From sequence record OR670491: DNA of 64,000 nt. The stretch is one strand, 5' to 3'. A program made the position numbers and the translations under genes. The notes below the pieces were generated by a model. The model saw only the letters and a list, made by a program, of their open reading frames with translations. It did no database searches and had not been told where the DNA came from. Positions within the stretch are counted from its first letter, which is position 1. Each line of letters starts with the position of its first letter. Source of the DNA: Escherichia phage vB_EcoM_JNE01. Shown here in pieces: positions 8,614 to 43,562 of this stretch.

Positions 8614-8621
8614 TATAAATA
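8614..8621 (+). promoter_or_regulatory. T4-type late promoter TATAAATA
   Basis: Exact TATAAATA match upstream of 8677. Confidence 0.5.
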
Positions 8622-8623
8622 AC

Positions 8624-8652
8624 GGGGAACATGGAGTTCCCCATAATTTTTT
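8624..8652 (+). terminator. rho-independent terminator (GGGGAAC...GTTCCCC family)
   Basis: GGGGAAC / GTTCCCC stem followed by a T-run; near-identical hairpins at 19030 and 60820. Confidence 0.65.
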
Positions 8653-8676
8653 GAATAATAAGTAAAGGAAGACAAA

Positions 8677-8883
8677 ATGCCACTATATACATATCGTTGT
8701 GAAAAAGAAGAATGCAAACATAGCATGGAAAAAATTGTGAAAATTGCCAATCGTGAGACACCGCATGATTGTCCAAAATGTAGTGGTGAACAAACAATGA
8801 AACTTGAAGTCTTTACACCAGGTGATAAAGGTGCTAACTTATATTTCCGTGGTAAATGGTTTGCAAACACTGGAGGTTACTGA
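8677..8883 (+). CDS. FmdB-family zinc-ribbon protein
   Basis: MPLYTYRCEKEEC...CPKCSG matches the MPxYxYRC...CPxCG zinc-ribbon pattern. Confidence 0.6.
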   Translation: MPLYTYRCEKEECKHSMEKIVKIANRETPHDCPKCSGEQTMKLEVFTPGDKGANLYFRGKWFANTGGY

Positions 8884-8884
8884 T

Positions 8885-9184
8885 ATGAAAATTAAAATGC
8901 AGAATGATTATGTACTGGTTCGTCAGATTGAAGCACAGAACAAAAGTAATGGCGGTATTATCCTCGGTAACGTTGAACCACCTTGTGTTGGTATGGTAAT
9001 CTCCGTTGGGCCAGGTAAAGTACTACCAAATGGTCAAATTGCAGAACACAACATTAACGTTGGTGACATGATTGTTTTTGGTCGTTCATCTCTAAATACT
9101 CCGATCACCGAAGATTTAGGTGGTGGTGAAGATACGTATTACGTAATGAAAATTGAAGAGATTTTTGGTAAGAAACATGGCTAA
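8885..9184 (+). CDS. GroES/Cpn10-type co-chaperonin
   Basis: YVLVRQ...NGGIILGN...GMVISVGPGKVL...VGDMIVFG...YYVMKIEEIFG follows the Cpn10 fold pattern; GGAGG RBS; start overlaps the upstream stop. Confidence 0.7.
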   Translation: MKIKMQNDYVLVRQIEAQNKSNGGIILGNVEPPCVGMVISVGPGKVLPNGQIAEHNINVGDMIVFGRSSLNTPITEDLGGGEDTYYVMKIEEIFGKKHG

Positions 9185-9902
9185 AAAAAGATACTTGCCT
9201 TTCTGTCTAGTCCCTGCTCATTGGGGACTTTCAGGGAAAGCAAAAGAGATTGCAAAAGCATACTATTACAACGATGATTATGAAGCAGATATTATAGTTG
9301 CAGAACTTACATATCTTACTCCATATGAAGTTGAAAAGGCTCAATTAGATATCAAGAAGAAGTATGGAGTTATCTCCGATGAACTTGAGTATCTAATTGC
9401 ACTTGCTGATTTAGATTTAAAATACTCAAAGATTACTCGTGATGAATATAATGTAAAGATACTTGATGCAAAATTAAGTACTGAAGCAATCACTAAACAA
9501 GAGTATGATCTTGAGATTATAGAACTAATGCCCGATAGTGATGATAAGTTATTAAAAACTATTGAGTACGCATATAGTTATGGTGAAATTACTCAACAAG
9601 AGTATTCTAAGGAAATCTTTACTTTACGTAAAGAACCTTGGATTGATTTGGATGTAATTCTAAACGATTCAAATGAAGTAGAATTTATATTTGATTATAA
9701 TGAATACTTCGTTAAGAAACTAAAAGATGAAGGTCATCCAGGAAATGATGAAGAAGAACTAATTGATAACTTCATTCGTGACTTGGGTCGCAAATTAGCA
9801 ACTGACGAGTTTAGTGATAACTATGACGTAAAGCTAGTAGCCGAGAACGAGGGGATCGAGAACCTACCTGGTTTACCTGACGGCTTTAAAAGATACAAAT
9901 AA
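9177..9902 (+). CDS. hypothetical protein with ITxxEY repeats
   Basis: ORF from the ATG at 9177; three ITRDEY / ITKQEY / ITQQEY repeats. Confidence 0.5.
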   Translation: MAKKRYLPFCLVPAHWGLSGKAKEIAKAYYYNDDYEADIIVAELTYLTPYEVEKAQLDIKKKYGVISDELEYLIALADLDLKYSKITRDEYNVKILDAKLSTEAITKQEYDLEIIELMPDSDDKLLKTIEYAYSYGEITQQEYSKEIFTLRKEPWIDLDVILNDSNEVEFIFDYNEYFVKKLKDEGHPGNDEEELIDNFIRDLGRKLATDEFSDNYDVKLVAENEGIENLPGLPDGFKRYK

Positions 9903-9908
9903 AAAAAA

Positions 9909-9933
9909 GGAGAGCAAAAATGCTCTCCTTTTC
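9909..9933. terminator. bidirectional rho-independent terminator between convergent genes
   Basis: GGAGAGCA / TGCTCTCC stem flanked by an A-run on the 5' side and a T-run on the 3' side. Confidence 0.65.
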
Positions 9934-9947
9934 TTGTATATAAATTA

Positions 9948-10625
9948 TTAAACCATAGGTGGGATAAATTTGAATAGTTTGATACCGAAATCACCAGCAG
10001 CATCAGCAGCTTTGGAATTCAGAACAACTTCAGTTACGCCATCTTTAGCTAGTAGTGGAACCATAGTTAGATCGTCAATTAGTAGACGGCCTTCTTCGAT
10101 ATCAGTACTTGGAACGCCTTGGAAAGATTGAATATCTTTATCAAACACGTTAGCACGTTCAACTAGGAAAGTAACTACGGAAGCACTAGGAATTGAAACA
10201 GCACCAACATTCATCACACCATCAGCAGCGTTGGTAAAATCAGTAACTGCTAGGTCTGCACCGATTTGGGAAGTAGCAATGATTACAGCACGTTGTTGAA
10301 CAACATCAACGATACGTTTAACGTTGGTTTGTGCAGCATAAGAAGCATTATAATCAGCTTCTAGGGTTGCAACTTCAAATGGAGTACCATCGATACGGAT
10401 GATACCTTTTTCGTTTAGGTAAACAACGATATCTTCAGCGATATCAGAGTTTAGGAAACGTTGTAGCCCAGCGAAAGAAGCAACTGCACCAGTAACTAGT
10501 ACGTTAACATCACCTAGTTTACTAACAGCGATGGATGCTAGGGCGTTTTTACCACAGAAGTAACCTAGAACGCTTTCATAGGAAAAACCATTGATACGTT
10601 CAAAAGTAGTATTAGTATTAGACAT
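9948..10625 (-). CDS. putative late/structural protein, paralog B of a tandem pair
   Basis: Shares QQRAV(I/L)..TS and ERxxVFDK blocks with the adjacent ORF; Val/Thr/Ala-rich beta-type composition. Confidence 0.55.
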   Translation of the reverse strand: MSNTNTTFERINGFSYESVLGYFCGKNALASIAVSKLGDVNVLVTGAVASFAGLQRFLNSDIAEDIVVYLNEKGIIRIDGTPFEVATLEADYNASYAAQTNVKRIVDVVQQRAVIIATSQIGADLAVTDFTNAADGVMNVGAVSIPSASVVTFLVERANVFDKDIQSFQGVPSTDIEEGRLLIDDLTMVPLLAKDGVTEVVLNSKAADAAGDFGIKLFKFIPPMV

Positions 10626-10640
10626 AGTAATGTTCTCCTA

Positions 10641-11240
10641 TTATAGTTGTACTGGAAGTGCAGCACGTACTTTAATAGCAACAGCAGTAGAAGCAGCCGC
10701 ATCACCAACACCATCAGTACCAACTGCTTGGTAAGTTTTGGTACGGAAGAATTTAGCTTGAGCAATAGACTTAGCTAGTTCTACGGTTGGGTCAACTGGA
10801 ACAGAGTAAGCAGCACCAGGACGAACTTCTTGCTTGTCAAATACGTCTTGACGTTCACAAATGAAGGTTAGAGCAACAGAGTTAGCACCACCAGTAACAT
10901 CAGCACCACTAGTACCGAATGCGATTACGTTACCACCAACGGTTTTGAAATCACTAGGAATAACAACTTCAGTATCTAGAGCTAGAACAGAAGTGGTAAC
11001 TAGAACAGCACGTTGTTGTAGTAGTTGGGTGATCATGAATTGGTTGTATTGAGCATTACTGATTGCAGTTTGTAGTGCTTCGTCTTGAACATCAGAACCA
11101 TCGGAAGTAACTTTAGTAGTACCAACTTCAACGTCAGTTGGAAGATTTACAACGATAGTTACGAAACCGTTGTTACCACCCCAGTACTCACGACCAGTAG
11201 CAGACATACCATAGTTACGGTTAAAAGAATTAAGACTCAT
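10641..11240 (-). CDS. putative late/structural protein, paralog A of a tandem pair
   Basis: Paralog of 9948..10625; AAGGAGA RBS on the minus strand before the ATG; late-promoter-like GATAAATA motifs upstream. Confidence 0.55.
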   Translation of the reverse strand: MSLNSFNRNYGMSATGREYWGGNNGFVTIVVNLPTDVEVGTTKVTSDGSDVQDEALQTAISNAQYNQFMITQLLQQRAVLVTTSVLALDTEVVIPSDFKTVGGNVIAFGTSGADVTGGANSVALTFICERQDVFDKQEVRPGAAYSVPVDPTVELAKSIAQAKFFRTKTYQAVGTDGVGDAAASTAVAIKVRAALPVQL

Positions 11241-11280
11241 AAAAATCTCCTTGTCAAATTTTGTGCAGGATTCTCCTGCT

Positions 11281-11358
11281 TGATATTATTTATCAAAAAT
11301 TATCCAGTGGCATTTAAAAATAACTGAATTACCCTTGACTCTATGATATTATTTATCA
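11281..11358 (-). promoter_or_regulatory. two direct copies of TGATATTATTTATCA (minus strand reads TGATAAATAATATCA), late-promoter-like
   Basis: Copies at 11281..11295 and 11344..11358; reverse complement contains GATAAATA, one mismatch from T4 late TATAAATA; upstream of the minus-strand gene pair. Confidence 0.4.
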
Positions 11359-11465
11359 TTTCTGGGACAGCAGCTAAAGATGTGCTACAATTATTAACGA
11401 AATACAAAGAAAACGGAGATTTCATATGCATTACCATTAAACATAAATGGCGACCTGAATGGTAA

Positions 11466-17683
<6,218 letters not shown>

Positions 17684-26525: not shown

Positions 26526-26925
26526 GTGCCACGTTGCGACGTTTAATACGCTTCTGTGGCAAATCACTTAAAGACACAGTTGGGCCACATACGAAATTCA
26601 CCGCTGGGGTATCGAATCTCTGTGTGTAAGGCTCAAATTTTTCCATTTCTTCTTGAAAAAATAAACATACTGGGATGTTTCTGTTGCTTTGCCACCACCA
26701 GTCATGTGCTATGCTAAGTAATTCGTCTTGCATTGGCTCATTCATATCATCAAAGGAGTAAAGAGTAGTGTACTGTTTACTTTTGATTTTGATAATACCA
26801 ATGTAAGTTTTGCCATCACACTGCACAACAGTAATGAATGGTGGAATAGTATTATATTGATTCATATGAGTTCCATAAATATTAGTATAAATGTTATACC
26901 TATTATTTATGGAAGGAAAAATCAT
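26512..26925 (-). CDS. hypothetical protein, isolated minus-strand gene (true start may be the internal Met at 26865)
   Basis: Only minus-strand ORF in the 23-36 kb block; basic C-terminal tail KRIKRRNVALKKK; convergent overlap with 25887..26525. Confidence 0.4.
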   Translation of the reverse strand: MIFPSINNRYNIYTNIYGTHMNQYNTIPPFITVVQCDGKTYIGIIKIKSKQYTTLYSFDDMNEPMQDELLSIAHDWWWQSNRNIPVCLFFQEEMEKFEPYTQRFDTPAVNFVCGPTVSLSDLPQKRIKRRNVALKKK

Positions 26926-27901
26926 GGCTCATCACGGTGTCTTTATGTACCCTTATAATCAGGAAGTCTCGTTGGGCAATTTTAATATGCCATATAGCAA
27001 CGAGAAGCTTACTATATATCGAGGTGCAAATAATACTTTATCTTTTACAGTACATAATGCTGATGGAAAATATACTCTTTTAAAAGATAATGAATATCTT
27101 ACTTTTATGATATTCGATGCACGTAATAATACTAAACTAATTGATATAGTACTTGAAAAAGTTAAACCAAGTTGGCTATCAGAAAGTGGTCAAGCACGTC
27201 AAACACTTGGTAATAGTAAGAAAGTTTACTATGGATGTATAGTTCCAGCAGGTGTTATCCAAGATACAAGTCCTGGTTCTAAGTATCGCTGGAGTATTAC
27301 AAAAGTTACAATGGACGGTTCTCTAATTGAACCTACGCAGTACTTGTATACGGGTCATGACTATGAAGCATGTGGTGATTTGATTATATCTGATCAAGCT
27401 GCTCCTGTATTTGTACCAAGTGTTGAAGTGTCAAGAAATAAGAATCCAGCATGGACTTCTATTATGCGTTTGTATCATGAACCGATTGCAATGGGAATGA
27501 CTGGTGAATTTGATATTCTTGCTTCTTCCCCTCTACCTGCACAGATGCAGTACGGATTGGTAGATGGTTTGAGTACTCTCGCTATGTATTTTGATAACTT
27601 CATTGGACGTATCCAATTACAAGGGTGTTTATGTAACAACGTACCTACAGATAATGAAAACTATAAATGGTTTATCATTAAATTGGATGGTAAAGATTAT
27701 ATAGAAAATGGTATTGATGCTAATGGTTTTGCTAAACCACTAGACGACATACAAGCTTTTAACTTTAAAGGTAACTATATGTGGTTGCGTTTGGTTGTAT
27801 GTATACATCCAAAGGTTGAACCTGTCCCTTATGACTATGCAGCAGTTAGAAAGATCTACGATCCTCTATTAACTGTTCCAAAAATTTTGATTCGCAGATG
27901 A
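26924..27901 (+). CDS. hypothetical protein
   Basis: ORF from the ATG at 26924 (GGAAGGA RBS); TATAAATG late-like motif upstream. Confidence 0.5.
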   Translation: MAHHGVFMYPYNQEVSLGNFNMPYSNEKLTIYRGANNTLSFTVHNADGKYTLLKDNEYLTFMIFDARNNTKLIDIVLEKVKPSWLSESGQARQTLGNSKKVYYGCIVPAGVIQDTSPGSKYRWSITKVTMDGSLIEPTQYLYTGHDYEACGDLIISDQAAPVFVPSVEVSRNKNPAWTSIMRLYHEPIAMGMTGEFDILASSPLPAQMQYGLVDGLSTLAMYFDNFIGRIQLQGCLCNNVPTDNENYKWFIIKLDGKDYIENGIDANGFAKPLDDIQAFNFKGNYMWLRLVVCIHPKVEPVPYDYAAVRKIYDPLLTVPKILIRR

Positions 27902-41048: not shown

Positions 41049-42172
<1,124 letters not shown>

Positions 42173-42173
42173 T

Positions 42174-42206
42174 AAAAAAAGGGAGCAACATAAGTTTGCT
42201 CCCTTT
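42174..42206. terminator. bidirectional rho-independent terminator between convergent genes
   Basis: A-run, GGGAGCAA / TTGCTCCC stem, T-run. Confidence 0.65.
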
Positions 42207-42211
42207 ATAGT

Positions 42212-42883
<672 letters not shown>

Positions 42884-42890
42884 TTATTAA

Positions 42891-43562
<672 letters not shown>

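Follow-up and report, generated by a model that had tools for sequence, protein, structure and literature searches.

Two adjacent genes of Escherichia phage vB_EcoM_JNE01 (sequence record OR670491), termed A and B in this work, are the sole minus-strand genes within ~15 kb on either side. The locus raises the question of what the two genes encode, how they are expressed and where their products reside in the virion. The window, that is, the whole stretch of DNA that was analyzed, is 64,000 nucleotides long. With a probability that we place at about 0.8, A and B constitute a two-gene late operon of a RaK2/121Q-type jumbo phage, which encodes paralogous, abundant virion proteins and is preceded by predicted tandem late promoters.

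The gene pair and its surroundings

A nucleotide comparison of a 2.1-kb region of the locus yielded 99.5% identity to Escherichia phage Turkey5 and 81–86% identity to phages fEgEco12, 121Q, PBECO4 and phAPEC6. On sequence grounds, the source phage is classed as an Asteriusvirus-like jumbo myovirus of the RaK2/121Q ("Rak2-like") group. The genes and the terminator of the locus are as follows.

9177–9902, plus strand: gene of a 241-aa virion protein, convergent with gene A across the terminator
9902–9935, both strands: bidirectional intrinsic terminator with a 15-bp stem, a 4-nt loop and T-runs on both strands
9948–10625, minus strand: gene A (225 aa, 23.9 kDa, pI 4.4)
10626–10640, minus strand: 15-nt intercistronic spacer between B and A, which holds the Shine-Dalgarno sequence AGGAG of gene A
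10641–11240, minus strand: gene B (199 aa, 21.0 kDa, pI 4.7)

The sequence-only reading of this DNA had described two adjacent minus-strand genes of 225 and 199 aa flanked by a bidirectional terminator, and all three elements were recovered at the positions listed. It had also placed the island inside a plus-strand replication module. The surroundings are indeed plus-strand; however, the polymerase, clamp, exonuclease, SSB and UvsX genes are mixed with GroES, terminase and other virion-protein genes. Because the 15-nt spacer, as read from the sequence, contains the Shine-Dalgarno sequence of gene A, B and A are predicted to be co-transcribed.

The window contains a second isolated minus-strand gene pair at 42212–43553, encoding proteins of 219 and 220 aa and associated with a hairpin terminator at about 42166–42205. 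This pair belongs to a different family and cross-matches phrog_14938 'membrane protein' and phrog_21209 'virion structural protein', together with a weak holin match. The sequences are probably those of another paralogous pair.

Paralogy, family and presence in virions

An origin of the pair by duplication had been proposed on the basis of shared QQRAV and ERxxVFDK blocks. Both blocks are found in each protein, as VVQQRAVIIATS and FLVERANVFDKD in A and as LLQQRAVLVTTS and FICERQDVFDKQ in B. BLASTP comparison of A and B resulted in 37% identity over 83 aa with an E value of 2e-7. Comparison of the two ortholog-family profiles with hhalign, using ortholog alignments of 34 sequences (A1) and 24 sequences (A2), aligned 177 columns with a probability of 99% and an E value of 3.7e-18. 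The profile alignment spans the N-terminal F-x-R-x-x-G ... G-x-N arm and reveals an insertion of ~30 residues in A relative to B after the first strand. Thus, the comparison bears out the duplication, and the two genes are, as judged from their profiles, full-length paralogs.

Gene A follows directly after gene B with a short gap in 27 of the 27 B-bearing loci that were fetched. A metagenomic relative with 37% identity has the same neighbors and the same B-then-A pair, and the most distant locus (L027) retains the same synteny, its gene neighborhood being no more informative. Vibrio phage 2.275.O._10N.286.54.E11 carries three tandem family members instead of two (L010, 1135–1818); the extra 227-aa gene is located upstream of the B-like gene and matches the family profile with an hhalign probability of 97.8%. 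The invariable linkage, the 37%-identical relative with the same neighbors and the third paralog of the Vibrio phage indicate that the duplication is old on sequence evidence, and the pair looks obligate. Since A and B always occur together and in the order B then A, their products may co-assemble in the virion.

Both proteins match the full length of the profile phrog_9326 'virion structural protein', A with an E value of 1.2e-76 (residues 4–224) and B with an E value of 3e-84 (residues 1–199). The orthologs of A are RaK2 gp106w (ORF106w), CBB_270, GAP32_264, phAPEC6 gp211, 121Q gp617 and fEgEco12 g363; those of B are RaK2 gp107w (ORF107w), CBB_271, GAP32_265, phAPEC6 gp210, 121Q gp618 and fEgEco12 g364. 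Sequence identity to the RaK2, CBB, GAP32, phAPEC6 and 121Q proteins ranges between 54 and 92%. The syntenic relatives keep the pair between the GroES and 241-aa virion-protein genes on one side and the RNase H-like exonuclease gene on the other. The RaK2 gp106w/gp107w family shares with the present locus the gene order, strand, neighbors, terminator and promoter motifs. In phAPEC6, the RNase H-like exonuclease gp209c is labeled 'DNA polymerase', and its annotated start is ~140 nt downstream of that in the other phages. The label 'hemagglutinin repeat-containing protein' attached to phAPEC6 gp211 (L004, MK817115) is supported by no profile and was rejected.

Searches of Pfam and NCBIfam with A and B identified no family, the single match being spurious (21 bits against a cutoff of 350), and a PDB sequence search returned noise only; hence none of the three resources revealed homology to a non-structural enzyme family. 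An HMM search of 1.84 billion representative proteins delineated a small family of 42 clusters, among which there is no annotated distant member and none with a Pfam domain, the longer members included. Three divergent metagenomic members of 290–300 aa (P0153, P0155 and P0156) contain, close to the C-terminus, an additional segment of ~80 residues in which GGxGY and Val/Thr-rich motifs recur; this segment has no Pfam match and may form a surface-exposed add-on domain.

AlphaFold models of the two proteins are of moderate confidence and are based on shallow alignments of 24–34 sequences (pLDDT 78.5 and pTM 0.75 for A; pLDDT 81.8 and pTM 0.77 for B). In both models the core is ordered as β – long α – β – β – β – α – β, which corresponds to a ferredoxin-like α/β sandwich as modeled; A combines this B-like topology with a two-helix insertion. 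The N-terminal 21–24 residues are predicted to be disordered in both proteins, yet conservation within the family is highest there. In B, where residues 1–21 are disordered, the residues of the N-terminal arm region that are invariant in the family are R8, N9, Y10, G11, E18, W20, G21, G22, N24 and G25. Comparison of the modeled folds with the PDB identified no specific neighbor, nor was structural similarity to a solved capsid decoration or cement protein found.

The orthologs are prominent in purified virions. RaK2 gp106w and gp107w are among the few proteins labeled on the virion SDS gel, and the 2013 paper already termed them "two distantly related proteins" (PMC3622015). Their migration at the predicted size indicates that they are unprocessed (PMC3622015). 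In the mass spectrometry of phAPEC6, gp210 and gp211 reached 69.8% and 69.9% coverage, compared with 74.9% for the major capsid protein (PMC7247149), and CBB_270 and CBB_271 were covered to 91% and 56%, respectively (PMC5259590). The CBB supplement further records the CBB_270/271 family in virions of CBB, GAP32 and RaK2 (PMC5259590). The earlier guess that the pair encodes virion proteins is therefore upheld by the phrog_9326 match and by the mass-spectrometric detection of orthologs in purified RaK2, CBB, GAP32 and phAPEC6 virions. By analogy with these relatives, the A and B products are expected to be among the most abundant virion proteins. Among the window genes of at least 100 aa, A and B exhibit the strongest codon bias (Nc 28.9 and 30.8, respectively, against a median of 41.6). 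Both proteins are acidic, rather hydrophobic and rich in Val, Ala, Thr and Gly.

The control region and the predicted late promoters

Upstream of B, the sequence-only reading had recognized a regulatory region with two direct repeat copies and a motif resembling T4 late promoters. The region is present, but its size is 258 bp rather than 235 bp when the ATG start used by the relatives (11499) is taken for the exonuclease gene. Its elements are as follows.

11247–11252, minus strand: Shine-Dalgarno sequence AAGGAG of gene B, read from the sequence and conserved in 8 phages
11265–11279, minus strand: 5'-UTR hairpin GCAGGA-GAA-UCCUGC, directly 3' of the proximal promoter motif
11281–11295, minus strand: proximal 15-mer, predicted late promoter P1, with the ATAAATA core at 11287–11293, 53 nt 5' of the B ATG
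11344–11358, minus strand: distal 15-mer, predicted late promoter P2, with the ATAAATA core at 11350–11356, 116 nt 5' of the B ATG
11364–11391, plus strand: predicted divergent sigma-70-like promoter of the exonuclease gene, with GGGACA, a 16-nt spacer and the extended −10 TGcTACAAT (11383–11391)

The 15-mer TGATATTATTTATCA occurs as exact copies only at 11281–11295 and 11344–11358, 63 bp apart, so that the two direct copies are confirmed. When up to 2 mismatches are allowed, the window contains 4 matches against 0.79 expected, a count reached in none of 100 shuffles. The sole other near-copy, CGATAAATAATATTA, has 2 mismatches and is located at 16325–16339 (a minus-strand match whose motif reads on the plus strand), inside the last codons of the large terminase gene. 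Its ATAAATA at 16327 lies 36 nt upstream of the gene for a 431-aa virion structural protein (16363–17658).

Read on the gene strand, the 15-mer is TGATAAATAATATCA, which contains GATAAATA. The late promoters of phage T4, TATAAATA, are read by gp55 together with gp33 and the sliding clamp. In both copies GATAAATA matches 7 of the 8 positions of this consensus, the first base being G instead of T. The putative late elements further resemble T4 late promoters in that an A/T-rich −10-type (G/T)ATAAATA, without a −35 element, is positioned 16–116 nt upstream of virion-protein genes. To our knowledge, tandem duplication of the late element before one operon is not typical of T4. As in T4, the clade encodes a gp55-like sigma factor, reported in CBB as CBB_244, whereas no gp33 homolog was reported (PMC5259590). 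The gp55-like gene falls outside the present window. ATAAATA had also been put forward independently, in the CBB paper, as the putative late promoter that serves structural genes of CBB and GAP32. Porf_271, ATAAATAACATTAA, a site given in Table S7 of that paper, is orthologous to the proximal copy (PMC5259590). The late-promoter-like motif noticed earlier thus coincides with the motif predicted for the clade.

The region upstream of B was aligned for 8 phages, representing Asteriusvirus, Alcyoneusvirus, Mimasvirus and Eneladusvirus together with Salmonella phage 7t3. At the proximal site TTGATAAATAA is invariant in all 8, as is the ATAAATA core at the distal site. The two exact 15-nt copies distinguish the present locus from the RaK2 gp106w/gp107w family, in which only the cores are conserved. 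The consensus stem of the 5'-UTR hairpin (GCAGG/CCUGC) is kept in the 8 phages; RaK2 preserves it through two compensatory changes. A plus-strand 'terminator-like' call at 11265–11279 was rejected in favor of the minus-strand 5'-UTR hairpin, because no plus-strand gene ends there. The extended −10 of the exonuclease gene, read on the opposite strand, is also conserved in the 8 phages, and this promoter resembles the 'divergent RpoD-like' TGAAAC/TATA class of CBB and GAP32 (PMC5259590). Taken as predicted from sequence, the intergenic region is a compact divergent control region, with one sigma-70-like promoter directed to the right and two late-type promoters directed to the left.

An alternative interpretation of the repeats is that they serve as operator sites for a dimeric regulator of the divergent promoters. 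Each copy is a perfect 5+5 palindrome, TGATA-N5-TATCA, the 63-bp spacing amounts to six helical turns, and the rightward promoter has its −35 element immediately next to the distal copy. However, only the ATAAATA(A/T) core, and TTG at the proximal site, are conserved across genera; in place of the right half-site TATCA, CBB, GAP32, Serratia phage BF, RaK2 and 7t3 have CATTA, CTTTA or TTGCA. Moreover, many other structural genes have the ATAAATA core upstream with no palindrome around it. Since the right half of the palindrome is not conserved in the 8-phage alignment, the operator hypothesis was rejected as very unlikely, and the promoter reading is preferred.

The distribution of ATAAATA across the window is consistent with the promoter reading. 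The heptamer occurs 13 times, 10 of them in the 7.5% of the DNA that is non-coding, and each of these 10 is co-oriented with the next gene and located 16–116 nt upstream of it. The enrichment and the orientation bias are modest; dinucleotide shuffles of the non-coding DNA contain 4.4 ± 2.0 occurrences, and 8 of 500 shuffles reach 10. Ten distinct genes lie directly downstream of an ATAAATA (nine non-coding sites and the site at the 3' end of the terminase gene), six of which belong to structural PHROGs, namely a tail-fiber gene and five virion-structural genes including B.

Two further sites carry related motifs. At 8615–8883 on the plus strand, a perfect TATAAATA and then a GGGGAAC...GTTCCCC hairpin precede an ORF for a 68-aa CxxC zinc-ribbon protein (phrog_13665, FmdB-like), whose Nc of 27.9, the lowest in the window, suggests a very highly expressed late product. 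At 26871–26914, a perfect inverted repeat of 11 bp, TTCCATAAATA ... TATTTATGGAA, whose arms are 22 nt apart and which places an ATAAATA on each strand, spans the nominal start of the virion-protein gene 26891–27901. The PHROG match of this gene begins at residue 12, so its true start may be downstream of the nominal one.

Under the proposed operon model, both predicted late promoters, with their ATAAATA cores 53 and 116 nt upstream of B, would drive leftward transcription through B into A. The conserved stem-loop would form the 5' end of transcripts initiated at the proximal promoter and would be read through by those from the distal one, and transcription would end at the bidirectional terminator at 9902–9935. 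Late timing of the operon is likewise a predicted step: the literature search found no transcriptome of a RaK2/121Q-clade phage, so that 'late' is used here as a prediction.

Location in the virion

In 2013, the authors of the RaK2 study suggested that one or both of the proteins form the tail tube, as they are abundant, 21–24 kDa in size and β-rich, and the RaK2 tube protein was then unrecognized (PMC3622015). Three genes that follow the RaK2 sheath gene (ORF042–044) are now annotated as tail tube, with PHROG matches to phrog_4542 and weakly to phrog_45, and these tube homologs are located ~73 kb away. In addition, the hhalign probability between the A/B profile and RaK2 ORF042 is 0.1%, and the A and B models do not exhibit the β-sandwich fold of T4 gp19/Hcp-like tail-tube proteins. 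The tail-tube assignment was therefore rejected on fold, profile and gene position, and we consider it exceedingly improbable.

Capsid, head interior and tail surface have to be weighed against one another, and abundance does not separate them, as an inner-body or tail-surface location would account for it equally well. As an internal head component, the proteins could belong to the 'inner body' described in phAPEC6, a rod of 91 x 18 nm, or to other packaged mass. By our own estimate such a rod would take hundreds of 20-kDa copies, which the abundance of A and B fits, but both are acidic (pI 4.4–4.7) and rather hydrophobic. Internal proteins of T4 and inner-body proteins of φKZ are proteolytically processed. 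The RaK2 orthologs, however, are not cleaved by the prohead protease (PMC3622015), and the phAPEC6 authors prefer RCC1-like proteins for DNA organization, all of which makes the internal location unlikely. A place on the tail surface, for example as a sheath anchor or decoration layer that bears the 'hairy' whiskers, would agree with the unusual fibers and extra densities along the sheath of CBB, phAPEC6 and 121Q and with the confinement of the family to the RaK2/121Q clade. The mapped tail decorations are few, comprising 12 elongated proteins at two levels and three fiber rings (PMC7247149), and therefore fit poorly with a mass-spectrometric coverage comparable to that of the major capsid protein; the A and B sequences also contain no coiled-coil or fiber-like features. 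The tail surface is accordingly a rather doubtful assignment.

The most likely single location, which we propose tentatively, is an accessory capsid layer of cement or decoration type, to which A and B would dock via the N-terminal arm. This assignment is preferred because the proteins are abundant, unprocessed, acidic, equipped with flexible conserved N-terminal arms and always paired. Like λ gpD, T4 Soc and Hoc and the φKZ minor capsid proteins, A and B are small, abundant accessory virion proteins with predicted late synthesis. Cement and decoration proteins commonly dock by means of a flexible, conserved N-terminal arm. As in such systems, the capsids of close relatives have a decoration layer: cryo-EM of phAPEC6 (10 Å) and 121Q revealed T=28 capsids with unattributed accessory density, although the published maps of relatives are at 10 Å or worse and the major capsid protein itself could account for this density through an additional domain. 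One possible arrangement, suggested with corresponding reserve, is an A/B heterodimer that forms the second layer of the T=28 Asteriusvirus capsid, spans the local two-fold axes and docks through the N-terminal arms.

The sequence-only reading holds up in its observations and, in essence, in its interpretation. For the orthologs, the same was already in the literature: paralogy and abundance were reported in 2013, the late motif and Porf_271 followed in 2017, and 2020 brought further mass-spectrometric data. The present analysis adds the full-length paralogy, the invariable linkage of the pair, a predicted fold without a specific solved relative, the finding that the tail-tube assignment is untenable and, from sequence alignment, the conservation across genera of tandem late-type elements together with a 5'-UTR hairpin. 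In practical terms, the locus of this Asteriusvirus-like jumbo phage can be annotated as a predicted late operon encoding two major virion proteins, and both the RaK2 tail-tube suggestion and the phAPEC6 'hemagglutinin repeat' label should be dropped. The literature search found no high-resolution structure for the RaK2/121Q clade. Abundant throughout this clade of 350-kb phages, without a structural relative in the PDB, and with a capsid layer present in close relatives, A and B are obvious targets for a high-resolution map of a RaK2-like virion. If the heterodimer layer proves true, it would establish a structurally novel type of capsid cement protein, confined to the RaK2-like jumbo phages.
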